This document shows positions 1,867-32,306 of a stretch of 32,306 nt of DNA, piece by piece. The position numbers were made by a program, and so were the translations under genes. The stretch spans positions 1 to 32,306 of the IMG/VR virus record IMGVR_UViG_2802429237_000004. One strand, given 5' to 3'. The notes beneath the pieces are model-generated. The model was not told the origin of the DNA, did no database searches, and worked only from the letters and a program-made list of their open reading frames with translations. The DNA is from a virus (lineage: Duplodnaviria > Heunggongvirae > Uroviricota > Caudoviricetes). The stretch's first letter is position 1, and every line of letters begins with the position of its first letter.

Positions 1867-4800
1867 GCGTCGTATCCCCCCTGATCGCTGTAGTTACTCC
1901 TGGCTTTTGCCTTCAGCCTGCGTTCACGTTCATCAAGCTGGCGTGCCACCTCCCGCGCAATATCCTGCGCACTTTGTCCTGGCTGCGTCTGAATGATGAT
2001 CTGCGTCGGTGCCTCAATCCGTTGAACGAGCGGCACAGTGGCTGCGCGACTCACAATTGCTTCTCCACCTTTCGCGGGAAGTGCCAAAGGGTGCAACGGT
2101 GGAAGCTCTGCTGGCGCGGCAGCAACGCCCATCATTCCGGCAACAACGGCAGCCAGTGCAGCTGTATTTCTCCGGCTGGTCACATTTGCCGGGCCGTTAA
2201 CAATTTCCGGCCCGTTTTCACCGACGATGCCAAACTGCCCGCGCGGGATATACCCGCCGCTGTCATACATCCCCGCAAAGCCATATCCCCATGATGGAAA
2301 ACCACCCGATGGCATCATCACTTTACCGTCTGCATTCACCGTCGCAGGTTGCTGACGCGTCACGCTTTCCGGCAGTTTTGCCTTTGCGGCCTCTTTACTG
2401 ACAATGCCGAGCTTCTCCAGCAACCAGGAAACGCCGGATTTCAGGGAGTCCAGCGGATGCATGACCATATTCAGCCCTTCCGCCAGTGCCTCCCCGAATC
2501 GCCGCCCCATTGCCGCTGCGCTCTGCAGTTCGGCAGAGGTCGACTTAACGGGCGTCAGCAGATCAGTAAACCAGCCCCACAGCGCCTGCACTTTGTCGCC
2601 AATCCACTGGAACACGGGCTTAAGCGGTTCGAACGCTGCACTGATGGGACCTGCCGCCGCTTTGAATCCTTCCACCACGCCACCGAGAAATGCGGTGATG
2701 GGTTGCCAGTATTTCCAGACAACCAGCGCCACGCCCGCCAGTGCAGTAACCACAAGACCTATCGGACTGAGCAGAGCACCTAACAGACCAGATATGGCAT
2801 ACAGGGCAACGCGCAGCATCGCCAGCGGGCCGGATGCGAGCACACGCAGCACCGCGCCTGCGGCAGCCAGCCCACCGCGTAGTGCTGCCAGTGGATTCAT
2901 AAACATCACAGCAACAGCACGTAAACCGGATAATCCAGAACGCAAAAGTGCAACCGGCGCACCTGCTACAGTTTTCAGGACATTCCCCATCAGTGATACC
3001 GTGCGACGCAAAGACGACAACGGAGCAGTAAGTAAACCCGCTGCGTTGCCCGATGAAGCAAGCCCGCGTCGCAGCAGTGCCAGTGGTGCGCCAGCCAGCC
3101 AGGACAACGCGCTGCTGGTTCGAGTTACTGCTGCCGTAACGGAAGGTAACGTTTTGATACCCAGCACAGAGAATCCCAGACGGATGACTGCCAGCGGCCC
3201 CAGCACTGCAGCCAGCGCCACCGCTAAGGTGCCGAGGCCTACGGTAACCGCAGCCACCACAGCCGCTACTTTCATCAGTGTGCCTGTCAGTTCCGGGTTA
3301 GCTTCCACCCAGCGGCGCAACGCCCCCATGATGCTTTTCACCGTGTACAGAATATCCATCAGCGGCTGGCGCAGCGTTTCGCCCAGGCTGCTGAAGGTGT
3401 TCTGCGCTCCGGTTTTGACCAGCAACCACTGAGCAGAAAGTGAGTCTTTGTTGATGTCGGATTCTTTCTGCATGGAACCGAGCGCATCATTGCCCGCTGT
3501 CAGTTTTAGCTGGCGCTGCAGTTCCGGAAGGTTGTTTGCCAGTTTCGCCGCGTCATCACCAAACTCTTTACCAAACAACATGGTCATGGCAGACAGACGC
3601 TTGTCCTGCGGCAGTGCGTTCACCTTCTCCAGCACACGCTGGATAGTTCCCATCGCATCCTTCGTCATCTGCTTTTCAATCACTTCAGGATTGAGTTTCA
3701 GCAGATTCATCCCTTCAAAGAAACTCTTGCTTTGCATGGTGGCAATGGACAATTCACGCACCATCGCGTTTGCTGCACTGGCTGCAACCTCCGGCGCAGC
3801 GCCCAGTGTCAGAAAGGTGGAACCCAGTGCCGCCGCTTTACGATAATCCAGACGGTCAGCCACACCGCCCAGACGTTGCATCACATCAATGATGTCCGCC
3901 CCTTTCGACATGGCGTTATCATCCAGATAGTTCAGCGCATCACCGAGCTGTTCAATATTGCGGGTAGGGATTTTGTAGAGCTGGGCGATTTTCCCCAGAC
4001 TTTCTGACAGTTCATCCGCTGGCAGCTCAAAGGCTGTTGCCGCCTTTGCTGCCGTGCTGGCGAAGGCCAGCAGATCACGTTTCTGGTCTTCCCAGCTGTC
4101 GTCAGGGTTTGCGACGTTCATGCGCGCCCCACCTTCAACCAGTGCAGCGAAGTCCACCGCACCGTTTTCCATCGGCAGCTGTTCGCTGGCAGCCTTGATG
4201 GCATCCTGCATTTCATAAAAACGTGCAGTGCGGTTGCCATTATCGTCACGCAGACCATTGACCTGCTTTGCCACACCTTTCATGGCATCTTCCATGCTGG
4301 TATAGCTTTTTACTGCCGCCATCACTGGCGCACCCATTGCCAGCCCTGCAGCCGTGGTAGTGGCTCCGGCTCCTGCGATGCGATCGCGCACTTCAAGCCG
4401 TCTTGAGTATTGTTCTCTGGCAGCGTTCATCCGTGCCTGTTGTTCACCCAGACGTTTAAGTGCTTTTTGCTGGCCCTCCAGTGCCTGCCTTGTTTCTTCA
4501 GCATTTTTCTTAAGTTCTCGCTGGGCACTACTGAGTTGTCTGGTATCAATCCCTGATTCTTTAAGTGCCTGACGTTGTCTCTGGACCGCCCCCAACAAGC
4601 CGTTATAGGTCTGCTGAAGTTCCTGTACTCGTGTTTTGGCCTGACTGAATAACTTTGCCTGCGCGGCGGTTGGCCTGTTAGTGGCAGCAAATTGTGTGGC
4701 GAGTTTTGCCGCCTCTTCGCGGGCTGCGTTCAGGTTGTTGGCTGTTATGGCTAGTTGCGAGCGCGTCTTGCGAAATTCATCAATTCTGCCAGCCTGCTTA

Positions 4801-12110: not shown

Positions 12111-12872
12111 ATGAAAGATAATTTAAATCTTCTTATAAAAAAATTAATAGGAAAGGCCTTTCCTGAATTTAGCAATAAGATAACATGGACTTTACTCACT
12201 GCAGGGATCGGTATTCTTGCACTACCTGCACCCACATATTTATTATTCGTAAACCTTATAATTGATTTTTACAACAAAACAACTAATTCAGAAATCAGCC
12301 TTCTTAAGATTGATAGCATTACACCAAGTAGTGGGGTTGCTTTAACTTTAATTCTATCCGGACTAGTCTTCCACCTATTAATAAAAGCCCCCCAGATATA
12401 CCAAGAAATTCTAAAAAAGAATAACAAAAAAGAAACACAGGAAAGAAAAAGAGTAGCAGACGTTAAACTTTATGAGGCATTTATTGAGATTCTACCTACA
12501 ACCTCGTTATCAATTGAGTTCTTAAAAGACCATGATTTTGAAAACTCCTATCATGATAATAATACAAAAGATTTTAGTAAACTTGAATACGGGTGGGGTC
12601 ATGCAGATCAACATTTTCATGACAATGAAATTGAAGATAAAGCCGTTCATCTTTATAGTGAAATAATAAAGTTCGATTATTTTCTCGCTTATAAATCGCA
12701 CAATATCAATGACTATATGTTTAGCATGCTTACTGACAGAGATCGAGCTATGGTGATGGAATTATTACCTCAAACAAAGGAAAATATAAAAATAGCCAAT
12801 GAGTGGAGTTCTACAATTCATCAGCTTTACTGTGACTTTATCTCCACATGTAGGAATAACTTAGCCATATAA
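12111..12872 (+). CDS. AT-rich cargo gene: predicted 2-TM membrane protein with unknown C-terminal domain
   Basis: 253-aa ORF with AAGGA Shine-Dalgarno 6 nt before the ATG; two hydrophobic helices (ITWTLLTAGIGILALPAPTYLLFVNLII and SGVALTLILSGLVFHLLI) then a roughly 160-aa soluble domain; visibly AT-rich against GC-rich flanking tail genes; located between S and V, where P2 carries orf30. Confidence 0.6.
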   Translation: MKDNLNLLIKKLIGKAFPEFSNKITWTLLTAGIGILALPAPTYLLFVNLIIDFYNKTTNSEISLLKIDSITPSSGVALTLILSGLVFHLLIKAPQIYQEILKKNNKKETQERKRVADVKLYEAFIEILPTTSLSIEFLKDHDFENSYHDNNTKDFSKLEYGWGHADQHFHDNEIEDKAVHLYSEIIKFDYFLAYKSHNINDYMFSMLTDRDRAMVMELLPQTKENIKIANEWSSTIHQLYCDFISTCRNNLAI

Positions 12873-21314: not shown

Positions 21315-22346
21315 CTATCTTTTTATTGCTCGTAGAGTAGTCATTAAATTCTCCCCATAAGGGGTTAAGGTCCAATATGTACCCTTGTCTTTTACACTTC
21401 TATTTCTTTCACTTTGGACCATAAGCCCTAGAGCTCGGAATTGTACTTTGATTGTCTGGACATCAGAACTATCCATACGAATAAACTTTATATGCATATT
21501 TTTAAAATCATCATCCGACCTCAACCCTGCCTCAACAATTTCATAGATGGAAGCGTTGATCAACGTTTTTAATCTATCATCGGAAATTTCATCAATCATA
21601 TAGGGAGAAATATAGGAAAATAATGAATTCCAACTTATCTGAGAGGTCCACTCATACTCTGAACCATCAGATGTCCACTCTGTAGGAGAAGCATGGAAGC
21701 TACATTTAAAAGTAAATAAATCGTCTCCTTGTGCAAGATCCTCAGTCCCTTTCGGTGCAGTTGTGGTATTCTTACTTAATTGATTTTCAAGTTCCTCAAT
21801 AGTCCTCTTCAACCCAAGAATTTCTTTTGCTGAACTCTCACTAGTAACTAAATCTCCACGAACCCATCCTACAGCAGGATGATCTTTAATAAGCCTAATC
21901 AAACTTCTACTGACTTGGCTTCCTAAGTCCGCAGGAGTTTCCCAGAATCGGCAAAGTTTCTTTTTAACAAGCTCTTCAAATGCTTCTAGCTTTTCTTTTC
22001 CTTGAGGAGATGGCTCACATCGCTGGGATGGTAAAAGACCTTTATTTTTGTGCAAAAAACCAATTACTGGCTTTCCTGATTCAACAGCGTAACGATACTC
22101 CATCTCAGTATAACTTATCCCATCAGGCCCTAAGGAACCGTAACGCCCCGCAAGGATTACAATGTAATAATCACTATCATCAATTATTTTCTTTATTAAG
22201 CTCCATTGATCACTATTAGTAGCAGGAAACAACTCCATACCAGCAGGTATACAATCCAGCTCTAAAAGAGCCTGCATGACCTCTTGACGTTCAGTTTCCA
22301 GGTCTGAGTATGTTGAACTAACAAAAACTTGATACCGCTTGTCCAA
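21315..22346 (-). CDS. AT-rich cargo gene: protein with DUF4062-like N-terminal module and unknown C-terminal domain (candidate defence/abortive-infection effector)
   Basis: 343-aa ORF; N-terminus YQVFVSSTYSDLETERQEVMQALLELDCIPAGMELFPA...DYYIVILAGRYGS matches my recollection of the DUF4062 signature; in-frame start is TTG preceded by GAGGGA at good spacing (no upstream in-frame ATG; the next ATG would cut the conserved motif); flanked by terminator hairpins. Confidence 0.6.
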   Translation of the reverse strand: MDKRYQVFVSSTYSDLETERQEVMQALLELDCIPAGMELFPATNSDQWSLIKKIIDDSDYYIVILAGRYGSLGPDGISYTEMEYRYAVESGKPVIGFLHKNKGLLPSQRCEPSPQGKEKLEAFEELVKKKLCRFWETPADLGSQVSRSLIRLIKDHPAVGWVRGDLVTSESSAKEILGLKRTIEELENQLSKNTTTAPKGTEDLAQGDDLFTFKCSFHASPTEWTSDGSEYEWTSQISWNSLFSYISPYMIDEISDDRLKTLINASIYEIVEAGLRSDDDFKNMHIKFIRMDSSDVQTIKVQFRALGLMVQSERNRSVKDKGTYWTLTPYGENLMTTLRAIKR

Positions 22347-22637: not shown

Positions 22638-22871
22638 TTAATGCAGCCAGCTGTCGTCTTCCCACACCTTCTGCATAATTTTCATCACTTGTTTTCTTTC
22701 TTCGTCCAGTTGCAGTCCGGTTAGTTCCACACCGTTAGAGCTACCTTTGCGAATGCGAATTACCGTTTTGGGATACAGGGGGCGCAGATTGCGGTAAAGC
22801 TCGGATTCAAGGGCGTCCAGGGTAGACTGGCTAATCTTCTGCTCTTTATCGATCATTATTTCAATGCGCAT
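22638..22871 (-). CDS. DinI-family protein (second gene of SOS operon)
   Basis: Start set at the internal MRIEIMIDKEQ, preceded by GAGGTG Shine-Dalgarno; 77 aa; N-terminus and C-terminal ...VWEDDSWLH resemble E. coli DinI and the C-terminal half of 186 Tum as I recall them. Confidence 0.6.
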   Translation of the reverse strand: MRIEIMIDKEQKISQSTLDALESELYRNLRPLYPKTVIRIRKGSSNGVELTGLQLDEERKQVMKIMQKVWEDDSWLH

Positions 22872-22881
22872 AAAAGTCACC

Positions 22882-23070
22882 TCAGCTGATGACATCCATT
22901 GAGCGGTTGTATTCGTGGGTTCTGATTTTTGCCATGAGTTCATCAGTCAATTCAGAAACCCACTGCAGAGCCAGCCCCTTCTCTTCATCACTACACTCAC
23001 TAGCCGCTACAAGCTTAAGAAAAAAATCAATGCGCTGGAGCTTCAAAGACTCCAAAAAATAGTCCTGCAT
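22882..23070 (-). CDS. Small SOS-operon protein (possibly the N-terminal part of a Tum-like antirepressor)
   Basis: Start set at the internal MQDYFLESL, which has a perfect AGGAGGAAAG Shine-Dalgarno directly upstream and lies 30-60 nt downstream of LexA boxes; the ORF-track start at 23172 would place the LexA boxes inside the coding sequence. Confidence 0.5.
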   Translation of the reverse strand: MQDYFLESLKLQRIDFFLKLVAASECSDEEKGLALQWVSELTDELMAKIRTHEYNRSMDVIS

Positions 23071-23098
23071 CTTTCCTCCTATGACACCACACGCAACA

Positions 23099-23129
23099 CT
23101 GTATGTATAACCACTGTTTATATTTACAG
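23099..23129. promoter_or_regulatory. Tandem LexA (SOS) boxes at the promoter of the tum/dinI-like operon
   Basis: Perfect CTG-N10-CAG with AT-rich core (ctgtttatatttacag, about 23114-23129) abutting an imperfect copy (ctgtatgtataaccac, about 23099-23114); LexA consensus is CTGTATATATATACAG. Confidence 0.6.
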
Positions 23130-23223
23130 CATATAATAATCTTACTGATGTAAAACGTTTTTTTACGTTCATCAGCCTGATATGCCTGGTATTATTAAGA
23201 GCACGAATTGTTAACCCGCGTAA

Positions 23224-28376: not shown

Positions 28377-28886
28377 TCACAGCAAACCGAATGAAGCACC
28401 GAGGCCAGTCACAGTATCAACTGCACTCGCCATCGCAGGGTTAGCCTGTAAACGGGCCTGCAATGAAACAGCCGCCAGCGCCATCAGTCGTGTTACAGAA
28501 TTAATGCTGCTGATGGCATCACGACGACCGGCACTGGTTTTTACATCGCCAGATACCGCACCTGCAGCAACACGCCCGATCTCTGCGGTTGCACTCATGA
28601 CGTAATGTGGCAGTTTCTCTTTTGCCACCTCATTAATCGGTACACATGGCAGACAATGAATCTGTGCCAGAAAACCATCTACCAGCGTTGAATCTTCAGT
28701 CAGATCGGTAAGCAGCCAGATTTCTGGTGCGGTTAATAAATGAGGTTGAGCTGGGTTCAGCTTGTTCCGCAGAATCTGCACATTCATGCCAGCACGTTCT
28801 GCCAGTTGCACCAGGTTGTGGCGCAATGCGAATGCACGACAGGCTTCATCAAAATGTGGATGTTTGGAAACTTGGTAATCAAACAT
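28377..28886 (-). CDS. cII: CII-like lysogeny establishment regulator (186 CII family)
   Basis: Start set at [24 protein letters not shown] (169 aa), which closely matches my recollection of coliphage 186 CII; second gene after apl. Confidence 0.8.
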
Positions 28887-28918
28887 GGTCGATACCCCTG
28901 ATGTATCCCAAAATGGAA

Positions 28919-29140
28919 CTAGTTGAATACAACATTGCAATCAGTAAGTGCATCAACGGTAAGAGCAGCAAGGTTGATCATCACCTTTTCTCTTTTCTTG
29001 TCTTTCCGAAGACGATGCCGAGGGATGCGACCGTCAGCCAGCATATCGTTAATTGTATCGATTGAAAGACCAGTAAGTTCGCTATAACGCTCAATTGTGA
29101 CATGTGGCGTATTCAGAGTTATTGAAATGTTAGGGGTCAT
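28919..29140 (-). CDS. apl: Apl/Cox-like excisionase and lytic-switch regulator
   Basis: 73-aa HTH protein, first gene of the lytic operon, divergent from the CI-like repressor gene as in 186. Confidence 0.7.
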
Positions 29141-29228: not shown

Positions 29229-30167
29229 ATGTCAACTCAAAAAAACACATTTCGCCATGTTAGCGAGAGTCTAAAAACTTCAATAATGCAAAACCGTGGG
29301 GGACAGAAAGTAATTGAGCGTATACTTGTTGCGTATGGTTTTACTTCGCGGCAAGCATTTTGCAATCATCTGGGTATCTCACAAAGCACGATGGCCAACA
29401 GGTATGCTCGTGACACATTTCCTGCTGACTGGGTGATAATTTGCAGTATAGAGACCGGCGCATCTATCGACTGGTTGGCATCGGGAATCAGCTGTGAATC
29501 ATCCTCAGTTTTATTAAATGATGAACGTTTAGCCCATACCAAATCTGATGACCTGGATAGAACTAATTCAATAGCCCAAAAGTTCCCAATCGAGACCAGC
29601 ATAAATCCTAATAAAGGAGGGAAGGCGGCAATTGATCGCTTAGTCGCAGCCTACGGCTTTAGCACCCGACAAGCCCTAGCAAACCATTTGCAGGTTTCAA
29701 AAAGCACTGTAGCAAACAGGTACTTACGAGACACGTTTCCTAGCGACTGGATCATTCAATGCGCTCTTGAAACAGGAACTTCATTACTCTGGCTCACAAA
29801 CGGCAATGGCCCCAAATTTATCGATAATTCCAGCTCTGTAGCCCAACTTAAACACCAAACAATCATTGACGGTAAATTACATGATGAAGGCTACTTAGCA
29901 TTTGACAAGACGCTTATACCTTCCGGATTGAAAAAACCTATTGGAGTTACCGCAGAAGGAAAAACCTTTATTGCAGATACAGAATATGATGATGTTTCAG
30001 ATGGTAGTTGGTTGATTGAGATTGAAGGTAAAGTAAGTTTAAGAAAATTAACAAGAATTCCAGTTGGAAAAGTAAAAATCACATCAGATACAACTGATTT
30101 TGTTTGTAAGCTTGAAGACATTACAACCATCGCAAAATGTTGTTGCGTTTTTTCAAAGGAAATTTAA
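29229..30167 (+). CDS. cI: CI-like immunity repressor with two tandem 186 CI-type N-terminal HTH domains
   Basis: 312-aa ORF; two consecutive segments (ERILVAYGFTSRQAFCNHLGISQSTMANRYARDTFPADWVIICSIETGASIDWLASG and DRLVAAYGFSTRQALANHLQVSKSTVANRYLRDTFPSDWIIQCALETGTSLLWLTNG) each resemble the 186 CI N-terminal DNA-binding domain; AT-rich C-terminal third; start codon choice uncertain (weak Shine-Dalgarno). Confidence 0.7.
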   Translation: MSTQKNTFRHVSESLKTSIMQNRGGQKVIERILVAYGFTSRQAFCNHLGISQSTMANRYARDTFPADWVIICSIETGASIDWLASGISCESSSVLLNDERLAHTKSDDLDRTNSIAQKFPIETSINPNKGGKAAIDRLVAAYGFSTRQALANHLQVSKSTVANRYLRDTFPSDWIIQCALETGTSLLWLTNGNGPKFIDNSSSVAQLKHQTIIDGKLHDEGYLAFDKTLIPSGLKKPIGVTAEGKTFIADTEYDDVSDGSWLIEIEGKVSLRKLTRIPVGKVKITSDTTDFVCKLEDITTIAKCCCVFSKEI

Positions 30168-30177
30168 AGGAACATAC

Positions 30178-31167
30178 ATGAATTCTGAAAATAAAAAAAA
30201 TGAAAACAACGATTATGTTGAAAAAGTTAATTGCGAATGGAAAGATCTTTATAATATTTTAAATGAAAATCTGCATAAATTTAATGAAAATGAACGCGCC
30301 TACTTAGTCGACTTATTAAAAAAAGGTGAACTTGATAAATTCAGAGAATACTACTGGAAATTAGCCCAGCAAGAAAAAATGAACTACAGCGATAAAGCTG
30401 GAGATATTTTTATTAATGAAAACAATAAGATAGATGAATTAATAAAAGAACAAAAACATCTTCGAGAGATAATGCGATCATATACCAAACGTTTATTGGA
30501 GGCTGAAGAGTCCAAAGCTACGTTACATCTTCGGAATGAGAATTTAGAAAAACTAAATTCTGAAAAAGAAGCAATTATTGAGCAAGCCGTATCTAGAATA
30601 AAGCAACTTGAAGCATCTAACAGCGAATTACAAAGCCGAGTACAACAAGAAAGGATTGATGAGAAAATACCAGGATATGTCGATAGCGTTAAAAGTGAAC
30701 TAAGTTCAGATGACTTATATTTCATTAAAATGTCGCAAGTATGGGCTTTTACTGGCTGCATTTTCGGGCTACTTGCTGTATGTGCATCATTTTATACACT
30801 CTACGCCACAATTGACTTCAACAATGTTAAAGGCTTTGAGCTATTTTATTTTTTCACACGTGGTTTAATTGGTATTTCCATTCTTTCTTGGCTAGCATAT
30901 ATTTGCCTTGGCAACTCTAAAAAATATACCCATGAATCAATTTTGAGAAAAGATAGAAGACATGCACTAATGTTTGGGCAAGTATTCCTGCAAATTTATG
31001 GTTCCACGTCAACAAAAGAAGATGCTGTGTTAGTCTTTAAAGACTGGAATATGTCTGGTAACTCTGCATTTTCTGACAAAACAGAACTCCCTCCGGGAAT
31101 CCAATCTTTATGGGATTCAACCAAAGAAAAACTAAAGCCAAGTACCGCTGAAAAAGCACAGGAGTGA
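30178..31167 (+). CDS. AT-rich cargo gene: coiled-coil protein with two C-terminal TM helices
   Basis: Start set at the ATG with AAGGA Shine-Dalgarno (MNSENKKNENN...); about 330 aa; a roughly 200-aa Glu/Lys/Leu/Asn-rich heptad region, then two hydrophobic helices (VWAFTGCIFGLLAVCASFYTLYATI, LFYFFTRGLIGISILSWLAYICLG) and a 65-aa tail; very AT-rich; followed by its own terminator. Confidence 0.6.
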   Translation: MNSENKKNENNDYVEKVNCEWKDLYNILNENLHKFNENERAYLVDLLKKGELDKFREYYWKLAQQEKMNYSDKAGDIFINENNKIDELIKEQKHLREIMRSYTKRLLEAEESKATLHLRNENLEKLNSEKEAIIEQAVSRIKQLEASNSELQSRVQQERIDEKIPGYVDSVKSELSSDDLYFIKMSQVWAFTGCIFGLLAVCASFYTLYATIDFNNVKGFELFYFFTRGLIGISILSWLAYICLGNSKKYTHESILRKDRRHALMFGQVFLQIYGSTSTKEDAVLVFKDWNMSGNSAFSDKTELPPGIQSLWDSTKEKLKPSTAEKAQE

Positions 31168-31229
31168 GGCCAATGTTTATTTCACCCTAAACATACATTG
31201 ATAACTGTTTAAATATACAGTTAAATTTA

Positions 31230-31253
31230 GCCCTCTGATATGAGGGCTTTTTT
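31230..31253 (+). terminator. Rho-independent terminator between the cargo gene and int
   Basis: gccctc-tgatat-gagggc stem followed by TTTTTT that runs straight into the int ATG. Confidence 0.6.
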
Positions 31254-32306
31254 ATGGCAGTACGAAAACTCACCACAGGAAAATGGCTTTGCGAATGTTA
31301 CCCTGCCGGACGTAGTGGACGTCGTGTGCGTAAACAATTCGCCACCAAAGGCGAAGCTCTGGCTTTTGAGCGTCACACGATGGAAGAAACCGAAGCAAAA
31401 CCCTGGCTGGGTGAATCAGTGGATCGTCGAACACTGAAAGACGTGGTTGAGATATGGTTCAAACTACATGGTAAATCTCTGACAGCTGGGCAGCATGTCT
31501 ATGACAAATTGCTGTTGATGGTTGACGCTCTGGGAAATCCCATTGCAACCGATCTCACCTCTAAAATGTTTGCCCACTATCGAGATAAACGCCTGACAGG
31601 AGAGATCTACTTCAGCGAAAAATGGAAGAAAGGAGCAAGCCCGGTCACCATTAACCTGGAACAAAGCTATCTTAGTAGTGTTTTTAGCGAACTATCCCGC
31701 CTGGGCGAATGGTCGTATCCGAACCCACTGGAGAACATGCGAAAATTCACCATCGCAGAAAAAGAGATGGCATGGCTTACCCATGAGCAGATTGTTGAAT
31801 TACTGGCTGATTGCAAACGTCAGGACCCAATTCTGGCACTGGTAGTTAAGATATGCTTAAGCACAGGCGCACGCTGGCGTGAAGCTGTAAATCTTACCCG
31901 CTCACAGGTGACCAAATACCGAATTACCTTTGTAAGAACGAAGGGGAAGAAAAACAGAAGCATCCCTATCAGTAAAGAACTTTACGAAGAGATCATGGCG
32001 CTTGATGGGTTCAATTTCTTCACAGACTGCTATTTTCAATTTTTATCTGTGATGGGAAAAACGTCTATCGTGCTCCCTCGCGGTCAACTGACACACGTTC
32101 TGCGCCATACGTTTGCGGCGCATTTCATGATGTCGGGTGGAAATATCCTTGCTTTGCAAAAAATCCTCGGACATCACGACATAAAAATGACTATGCGTTA
32201 CGCACATCTGGCACCGGATCATCTGGAAACGGCGCTCCGTTTCAATCCTCTGGCAACGCTGCCAAGTGGCGACAAAGTGGCGGCAGCGGTTGGCATTACC
32301 CCGTAA
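31254..32306 (+). CDS. int: Tyrosine integrase (P2/186 family)
   Basis: 350-aa ORF; N-terminus MAVRKLTTGKWLCECYPAGRSGRRVRKQFATKGEALAFE and C-terminal catalytic region (..HVLRHTFAAH...HHDIKMTMRYAHL) typical of P2-family integrases; stop codon is the last three bases of the window. Confidence 0.9.
   Translation: MAVRKLTTGKWLCECYPAGRSGRRVRKQFATKGEALAFERHTMEETEAKPWLGESVDRRTLKDVVEIWFKLHGKSLTAGQHVYDKLLLMVDALGNPIATDLTSKMFAHYRDKRLTGEIYFSEKWKKGASPVTINLEQSYLSSVFSELSRLGEWSYPNPLENMRKFTIAEKEMAWLTHEQIVELLADCKRQDPILALVVKICLSTGARWREAVNLTRSQVTKYRITFVRTKGKKNRSIPISKELYEEIMALDGFNFFTDCYFQFLSVMGKTSIVLPRGQLTHVLRHTFAAHFMMSGGNILALQKILGHHDIKMTMRYAHLAPDHLETALRFNPLATLPSGDKVAAAVGITP

Follow-up and report, generated by a model that had tools for sequence, protein, structure and literature searches.

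A PHROG 2628 membrane protein encoded between the CI repressor and integrase genes of a 186-like prophage: a candidate for anti-phage function

Gene organization of the immunity and integration region

The DNA analyzed here (the window; 32,306 nucleotides, positions 1 to 32,306 of IMG/VR virus record IMGVR_UViG_2802429237_000004, Caudoviricetes) carries at 30178-31167 on the plus strand a gene for a protein of 329 residues (ATG at 30178, stop codon ending at 31167), which belongs to PHROG 2628 and is referred to below as the cargo gene. The last 5 kb of the window are that end of a 186-like E. coli prophage at which the genes for immunity and integration lie. In this region the genes for CII (CP76; 28377-28940) and for a Cox/Apl-like helix-turn-helix protein (28919-29140) lie on the minus strand. 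They are followed on the plus strand by the gene for the 312-residue immunity repressor CI (29229-30167; Pfam PF07022 twice, E 5e-55, and PF16452, E 1.5e-30; RefSeq label "phage repressor protein CI"), a gap of 10 nt (30168-30177) holding the Shine-Dalgarno sequence AGGA at a spacing of 6 nt from the ATG, the cargo gene, a conserved int leader (31171-31253) and the tyrosine integrase gene int (31254-32306; Pfam Int_N and Phage_integrase), which begins 86 nt after the cargo gene. Based on the RefSeq context, this integrase is that of the rcdA-site (phi-b0847-type) 186-like prophages: in RefSeq genomes with the same DNA (99.7% identity) the prophage adjoins rcdA/ybjJ, and its early genes are of the 186 type (Fil, DUF5347, DUF2732, TraR, Dam, replication endonuclease and the DinI-like Tum).

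In phage 186 the stop codon of cI overlaps the start of int and no gene lies between them, so that, compared with 186, the cargo gene has been inserted. The first-pass annotation, made from the sequence alone, had placed an AT-rich open reading frame (ORF) of about 330 residues between repressor and integrase and had noted that the two genes are adjacent in 186; each of these points was borne out. Most likely, the cargo gene is an accessory (moron) gene whose slot in the lysogenic operon is bounded upstream by cI and downstream by a terminator insulating int.

The GC content of the cargo gene is 0.334 (0.273 at third codon positions), compared with 0.478 in int and 0.513 over the window as a whole. 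Among 5.8 billion proteins searched, 167 relatives were found; they are all from Enterobacterales and all named "hypothetical". Over the second transmembrane (TM) helix and the tail, comparison with alleles from other genomes gave dN of 0.03-0.21, saturated dS and omega of 0.01-0.16. Because of these more than 160 homologues and the low dN/dS, the ORF is regarded as a real gene, under strong purifying selection in its C-terminal module. An antisense ORF of 125 codons (30384-30761) was dismissed as a by-product of the AT-rich sequence.

No promoter-like match above chance and no significant terminator were detected in the interval between cI and the cargo gene. As a possible attenuator, a weak hairpin followed by six T residues was assessed at 30131-30147, within the 3' end of cI; it was dismissed, its folding energy of -3.8 kcal/mol being no better than that of shuffled sequences (z = +0.43). 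The 10-nt gap, the good Shine-Dalgarno sequence and the lack of intervening signals point to co-transcription of the cargo gene with cI in the lysogen.

Protein architecture and conservation

The structure of the cargo protein was modelled with AlphaFold using an alignment of 69 sequences (mean pLDDT 80). Residues 1-71 (30178-30390) are predicted to form a small domain of three helices (7-30, 37-48 and 52-71), in which column conservation is 0.2-0.37 and only a loose motif is kept among alleles. A disordered linker separates this head from one unbroken helix, residues 81-209 (pLDDT 93-98; above 90 over residues 90-150), which runs directly into the first TM helix. The part of the long helix preceding the membrane (81-186; 30418-30735), delimited by the model, coiled-coil matches in the PDB and Pfam, periodicity and conservation, consists of a hypervariable coiled-coil-like stalk (81-147) and a conserved pre-TM helix (148-186) with the motif QQxRIDxKIPxYVxxVKxxLxxDD.

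Hydropathy and alignments place TM helix 1 at residues 187-212 (30736-30813), with W189 and G193 invariant, and TM helix 2 at about residues 221-245 (30838-30912), in agreement with the two adjacent TM helices noted in the first-pass annotation. TM2 holds R228, a conserved basic residue, and an RGxxG motif toward its outer end, and W238 is invariant among close relatives. The 8-residue loop between the helices (213-220; 30814-30837) is, by the positive-inside rule, presumably periplasmic; six K or R residues occur within the 17 residues after TM2. Since there is no signal peptide and 186 residues precede TM1, the predicted topology is an inner-membrane hairpin with both termini in the cytoplasm.

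The tail following TM2, which had been described as short, comprises 84 residues and takes in the protein's most conserved stretch. In the model, a second helix (219-274) combines TM2 with a juxtamembrane portion and is followed by two short helices. Residues 246-300 (30913-31077), identified from alignments and dN/dS as the most conserved segment, correspond to this predicted cytoplasmic basic juxtamembrane helix and the next helix and carry the near-invariant motif YTHESIxRKDRxHALxFGxxFLQIYG ... VFKDWNMSGxSAFS. The C-terminal end (301-329; 31078-31164) is variable and modelled with low confidence. Conservation is thus strongly polarized: column identity is 20-40% at residues 1-147, where alleles occupying the same slot are 13-47% identical to each other, and 53-93% at residues 151-300. 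In the comparison of alleles, conservation at residues 150-300 is 75-93%.

The N-terminal region had also been called heptad-rich. That it is a long helix is supported by the model, and its periodicity is evident at the level of the family, where a 3.5-residue Fourier signal reaches p<0.05 in 41% of the 69 members against 5% expected (median peak period 3.45); in the cargo protein alone the signal is not significant (z = 1.4, p ~0.11), and a crude heptad score of a and d positions shows no excess over a shuffle null. The family profile matched the coiled coils of GCN4, ZapB and tetherin in the PDB at E 1e-4 to 0.1, with a weak match to crescentin as well.

Homology searches

The cargo protein matches phrog_2628 (unknown function) over its full length, residues 22-326 aligning with positions 13-311 of the 314-position profile (E 1.1e-88); the cluster is unannotated, and the match gives no functional information. 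All four matches at E<=1 in the PHROG scan were to clusters of "unknown function", and none was annotated as superinfection exclusion. NCBIfam returned no match to the cargo protein, and Pfam nothing above threshold, leaving coiled-coil noise and DUF2207_C (PF20990), which over the stalk and TM helices scored 24.6 bits against a gathering threshold of 33 (E 2.4e-5). Similar sub-threshold matches to DUF2207_C were obtained for 36 of the 69 relatives. The PADLOC v2 scan gave only JukA (0.5) and LeoBC (0.59), both spurious, and neither Pfam nor PADLOC detected a TIR domain in the protein.

Searches of the PDB with full-length and C-terminal profiles yielded coiled-coil noise or nothing. Foldseek against BFVD gave nothing below 1e-3; four of the 50 top weak hits were viral SLATT proteins (E 0.14-0.94, TM-score 0.2-0.3), a non-significant hint of structural resemblance. 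Megablast found no phage carrying the cargo gene, and no paper was found on the accession, on phrog_2628 or on a coiled-coil plus two-TM prophage exclusion protein. Databases list the family only under an unannotated PHROG and the name "hypothetical protein".

The cI-int interval as a site of gene exchange

Three kinds of occupant were identified in the cI-int slot of prophages that share this int and the rcdA site: SNIPE, a 63-residue ORF and divergent alleles of PHROG 2628. The SNIPE-type occupant, present in otherwise near-identical prophages, is a protein of 558 residues with a TM helix, DUF4041 and T5orf172 (PADLOC PD-lambda-1, E 3e-120). PD-lambda-1, since renamed SNIPE, is a membrane-bound defence nuclease which cuts phage DNA during injection (bioRxiv 10.1101/2025.11.03.685801). 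The 63-residue ORF, which RefSeq labels "YdcA family protein" or hypothetical, was the commonest occupant in the sampled E. coli genomes, being found in five of six (loci L029-L033, ~3180-3373). Among 5426 complete E. coli genomes, this int with its leader is present in 1114, a homologue of the conserved C-terminal part of the cargo gene (window 30700-31167) in 154 (24 with this allele) and a SNIPE homologue in 164, the last two totals being counts over the whole genome, which may include homologues outside the slot. The cargo gene is absent from 186 and from most sibling prophages.

Against other E. coli prophage alleles, DNA homology of about 90% ends at 29481 within cI and is found again from 30836, where TM2 starts. 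Judged from these breakpoints, the distal part of cI and cargo residues 1-220 move together as one exchanged block (29481-30836), with the conserved 3' part of the cargo gene serving as recombination anchor. Such a block, by which repressor type and head are inherited together, is what could be expected if the product had a housekeeping or regulatory role tied to immunity, for example if it modulated CI or induction while tethered to the membrane. We consider this very improbable: linkage alone accounts for the co-variation, 186 and most siblings lack the gene, and homologues are found in places with neither cI nor int.

Only two moron positions were given for this prophage type in a 2013 study (PMC3573123), and a 2026 survey names a minor defence hotspot of P2-like phages in the interval between integrase and primase (PMC13586616). 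A second variable slot was observed in sibling prophages, between int and the rcdA-side attachment site, where the occupants are a Panacea-domain protein with a hypothetical protein (L031 4745-5973), a DUF2971 protein (L033 4780-5532) or an 89-residue ORF (L029 4650-4919); this agrees with the int-att hotspot to which the same survey refers (PMC13586616). In Yersinia rohdei (L005 6611-8076) the homologue is followed by genes for a 168-residue protein with bPH_3 and SHOCT domains and a 307-residue protein with no Pfam or PADLOC match, and int is apparently frameshifted.

The int leader

The cargo gene had been credited with its own terminator. An intrinsic-terminator hairpin is indeed present (31229-31254, +), consisting of a 7-bp GC-rich stem at 31229-31248 followed by U6 (-13.3 kcal/mol, z = -2.5); the T-run ends in the int ATG, and the 3' arm GAGGGC is the sole Shine-Dalgarno-like element for int. 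Homology to phages KP12 and vB_EcoM-813R9 starts at 31171, four bases past the cargo stop codon, and the 85-bp leader with its hairpin is conserved across five phages whose cargo differs, some of them with SNIPE in the slot. Since phages with a different slot gene keep the whole leader (31171-31253), the hairpin is assigned to the int leader, that is, to the phage backbone and not to the cargo. Any occupant of the slot after cI would accordingly be predicted to be transcribed from the lysogenic promoter and terminated before int.

A promoter-like element, TTGATA-18-TAAATT (31198-31227, +), is also conserved in the five phages. Its spacer holds a LexA-box-like palindrome, aaCTGTttaaatatACAGtt, at 31204-31223, with 16 of 20 matches to the LexA-box consensus; two CTGT-N8-ACAG sites occur in the window against 0.35 expected. 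A transcript from this element would start inside the 5' arm of the hairpin and so escape it, which suggests that expression of int is SOS-induced and uncoupled from the cI operon, unlike in 186. The second perfect CTGT-N8-ACAG site (23114-23129) is located just upstream of the DinI-like (Tum-type) gene at 22638-22943 (-) and an ORF at 22882-23172 (-), and agrees in position with the LexA-controlled p95 promoter of 186.

The wider family

Distant members were sought by an exhaustive HMMER search with a 20-sequence profile of residues 148-329. At least 468 cluster representatives (50% identity) contain the C-terminal module at E<=1e-3, 289 of them at E<=1e-10; the family occurs in Enterobacterales, Vibrio, Shewanella, Bacteroidota and Nitrospirales. 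In every case the module stands at the C-terminus, preceded by 100-240 variable residues, and phrog_2628 was matched by all 115 distant members tested. No Pfam domain was found on the module in the 69 relatives or in the distant members scanned (n=10). Invariant across the superfamily are E253, H262, A263, G267, G275, F287, W290 and F298, and near-invariant are L175, G193, L271 and N291. A basic residue is also conserved where TM2 begins.

The helical head is replaced by an N-terminal TIR domain in approximately 27-30 of the 139 distant representatives listed (about 20%). These heads match PADLOC TIR models down to E 1e-14, in agreement with a local hidden Markov model, and in PDB profile searches they match AbTIR, Cat1 and TIR-APAZ at E ~1e-14 with the invariant Glu in the alignment. 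Precomputed Pfam annotation assigns TIR_2 to TIR-fused members, some of which are named TIR-domain proteins (Roseivirga, Dokdonia, Nitrospirales). Two other distant members have a weak match to EAD11, and one has an MgtE_N-like head.

Several members lie close to defence genes. On a metagenomic Enterobacterales-like contig (L019 7050-7943) an Abi_alpha gene (PF14337) immediately precedes a distant member, the two being placed between a CI_C remnant and a truncated int near smpB, and this locus adjoins a restriction-modification system (a methylase/MvaI-BcnI pair) and a DUF2726 helicase gene. A Shewanella member is located 3 kb from Hachiman HamA/HamB, and one on a Vibrio megaplasmid is near DUF4238 and DUF262 genes. 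Another occupies a moron position in a P22-like prophage, and one is flanked by insertion sequence elements. A cargo homologue was also observed on a circular Klebsiella "plasmid" of 9111 bp (NZ_CP072999.1, locus L026), which consists of a 186-like early region (cI, apl-like, cII, fil, DUF5347, DUF2732, traR, dam and replication endonuclease genes) and a group II intron reverse transcriptase; this could be either a mini-replicon of phage origin or a product of assembly.

Comparison with known systems

The cargo protein resembles the SLATT proteins of CBASS and of type VII Thoeris (ThsH) in its pair of adjacent TM helices and in the conserved, positively charged helical part on the cytoplasmic side. 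SLATT domains occur with or fused to TIR; in the cargo family, TIR fusions are seen in about 20% of the distant representatives. The SLATT effectors of type VII Thoeris are proposed to form oligomers that breach the membrane (10.64898/2025.12.03.692087), and the Gly motifs in both TM helices, the basic residue in TM2 and the basic pocket-like tail of the cargo protein are reminiscent of them (10.64898/2025.12.03.692087). The differences are that neither the cargo protein nor its relatives match the Pfam SLATT models or a PADLOC effector model, that no nucleotide-signal enzyme (SMODS/CD-NTase, TIR or SLOG) is encoded at the cargo locus, and that the cargo module is C-terminal to a long helix. 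The cargo module is thus SLATT-like in its architecture.

SNIPE (PD-lambda-1) shares with the cargo protein the cI-int slot, a single gene, an inner-membrane anchor and a long helical region; it differs in its N-terminal TM helix, DUF4041 and T5orf172/GIY-YIG nuclease, which the cargo protein lacks. The slot SNIPE was considered as a distant homologue with a longer stalk and rejected, the BLASTP match (E 0.14) covering a coiled-coil stretch only.

The rexAB exclusion genes of phage lambda are transcribed with the repressor in the lysogen, and their membrane effector depolarizes the cell. That system consists of the sensor RexA and the 4-TM channel RexB, whereas the cargo is a single gene for a 2-TM protein with no homology to either. 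The genes for lactococcal Sie2009 and Streptococcus thermophilus Ltp lie between repressor and integrase, and their products, like P22 SieA, are membrane-associated and expressed from the prophage. They are small proteins or lipoproteins acting at the outer face of or within the membrane, and the PHROG scan showed no sequence relation to the cargo protein.

Superinfection exclusion without cell death has to be weighed here. The product would block entry of the incoming genome at the inner membrane, for example through the ejection or tape-measure machinery or an inner-membrane host factor, and would resemble P22 SieA, HK97 gp15, T4 Imm or lactococcal Sie2009. A lysogen-expressed position, a predicted inner-membrane protein with a large cytoplasmic domain and a sibling occupant, SNIPE, acting at genome injection all fit, and with its hypervariable N-terminus the protein could keep pace with the variety of phage proteins ejected. 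On the other hand, only about 8 residues are exposed to the periplasm and no superinfection-exclusion PHROG was matched at E<=1. The TIR- and EAD11-fused relatives, furthermore, are better suited to cell-autonomous immune effectors than to passive blockers, and members in defence islands outside phages would be unusual for exclusion genes. We regard exclusion of this kind as unlikely, though it should be kept in mind.

Proposed function

The cargo product is a candidate single-gene inner-membrane anti-phage protein, expressed in the lysogen and equipped with a SLATT-like effector module; we give this reading a probability of roughly one half. The anti-phage assignment is based on the slot and its SNIPE-carrying siblings, on the effector-like conservation of the module against a hypervariable head, on the TIR and EAD11 fusions and on the defence neighbours, and a SLATT-like mechanism is favoured by the Gly motifs, the intramembrane basic residue and the basic cytoplasmic pocket region. 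In the proposed sequence of events, the protein would be constitutively present in the lysogen, with its variable helical head carried on a long, probably oligomerizing helix that runs straight into TM1. Head and stalk would hold the C-terminal module inactive until a phage-derived cue is recognized, upon which the conserved module would assemble and breach or depolarize the inner membrane, so that infection by a competing phage would be aborted or blocked at the membrane. The membrane-breach step in particular is proposed more tentatively than an anti-phage effector role as a whole.

Several observations weigh against this proposal. The cargo protein is without homology to any characterized defence, abortive-infection or superinfection-exclusion protein or to a SLATT model. 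The remote homology check suggested in the first-pass annotation, which included SLATT profiles, gave no SLATT match in the protein (none at E<=1 with Pfam) or in its close relatives: SLATT was not among the 25 most frequent Pfam families for the 69 relatives (E<=0.1), nor was it found in 10 distant members. The layout likened there to abortive-infection or superinfection-exclusion proteins thus draws support from context (SNIPE in the slot of siblings, TIR fusions, defence neighbours) and none from matches to SLATT, abortive-infection or exclusion models. The coiled coil is moderately supported, and weakly so in the cargo protein itself. A tblastn search of 50,697 deposited phage genomes with the cargo protein and with one distant member gave no match, so that all evidence on the family comes from prophages and chromosomes.

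The neighbourhood sample, about a dozen loci, is small and not statistical, and suggests rather than establishes an association with defence. Several distant members stand in plain chromosomal settings (Chimaeribacter, Enterobacter and a metagenome contig). Homologues among ordinary genes would agree with a lysogenic conversion function unrelated to phages, by which envelope physiology, stress tolerance or virulence is altered in the manner of neaT, the fitness moron carried by phi-b0847-type prophages (PMC3573123). The TIR fusions and the defence neighbours speak against such a function, as does the allelic hypervariability of a cytoplasmic head within one prophage lineage, which is typical of conflict genes; it is accordingly rated as rather improbable.

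A further objection concerns the direction of signalling. TIR is usually the effector or signal generator, so that the conserved module could be an anchor or sensor instead of the effector. The assignment of the coiled coil as sensor and of the two TM helices as effector is plausible, and the TIR fusions permit the opposite. If so, the 2-TM module would anchor the protein or sense membrane perturbation or a host partner, and the swappable head would be the output, here by binding or sequestering a target. The replacement of the coiled-coil head by TIR, typically an NADase effector or signal generator, on the same module is in keeping with this, and extreme conservation of the module would be expected for contact with a conserved cellular component. 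Yet the cargo head has no recognizable enzymatic or binding domain, the weak matches to the EAD11 adaptor suggest that the module itself is the delivered effector, and the Gly motifs with the intramembrane basic residue fit an assembling pore. We therefore consider this inverted arrangement doubtful, and retain the SLATT-like effector as the preferred reading.

A wider proposal, which is possible and put forward tentatively, is that the C-terminal module, with its signature of a pre-TM helix, two TM helices and an HE..R.DR.HA..FG...WN tail, represents an undescribed and widespread immune membrane module distinct from SLATT. Its heads would be interchangeable: coiled-coil or helical, TIR, EAD11-like and MgtE_N-like forms were found. 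The prophage version, with its hypervariable head, would then be a one-protein sensor and effector which recognizes a competing phage at the inner membrane and collapses membrane integrity, and a new single-gene defence family in a third, cI-linked hotspot of P2/186-like phages.

Other features of the window

The 312-residue CI contains two tandem CI-type helix-turn-helix domains (PF07022 twice) followed by the CI C-terminal domain. A single such domain is present in the CI of 186 (a 579-nt gene) and in the CI of 189-198 residues of sibling prophages; further CI alleles of 292 and 314 residues were observed.

Two more cargo-like genes were noted. An AT-rich ORF of 343 residues (21315-22346, -; GC ~0.38) with an N-terminal DUF4062 (E 7e-29) adjoins a portal-like gene and is near the DinI-like gene. 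Its site is presumably the hotspot that P2-like phages have between replication and portal genes, and the ORF is probably a further defence-type cargo gene. An ORF of 253 residues (12111-12872, +) with no Pfam domain lies in the kilobase with the lowest GC content of the window (0.336), and we suspect that it occupies the tail-region moron position at which the phi-b0847 prophage of CFT073 has neaT.

Significance for prophage biology

If the cargo protein is anti-phage, it would add to the prophage defence repertoire a new single-gene family which is not matched by Pfam, NCBIfam or PADLOC v2, and the cI-int interval of phi-b0847-type prophages, present in about 20% of complete E. coli genomes, would be an insulated slot for defence cargo expressed in the lysogen. 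The TIR fusions offer an experimental handle on the question of effector versus sensor, and make the family a compact model of the wiring between membrane modules and immune domains. Should the protein not be anti-phage, PHROG 2628 is still an unannotated and strongly conserved membrane protein family in clinical E. coli lineages.

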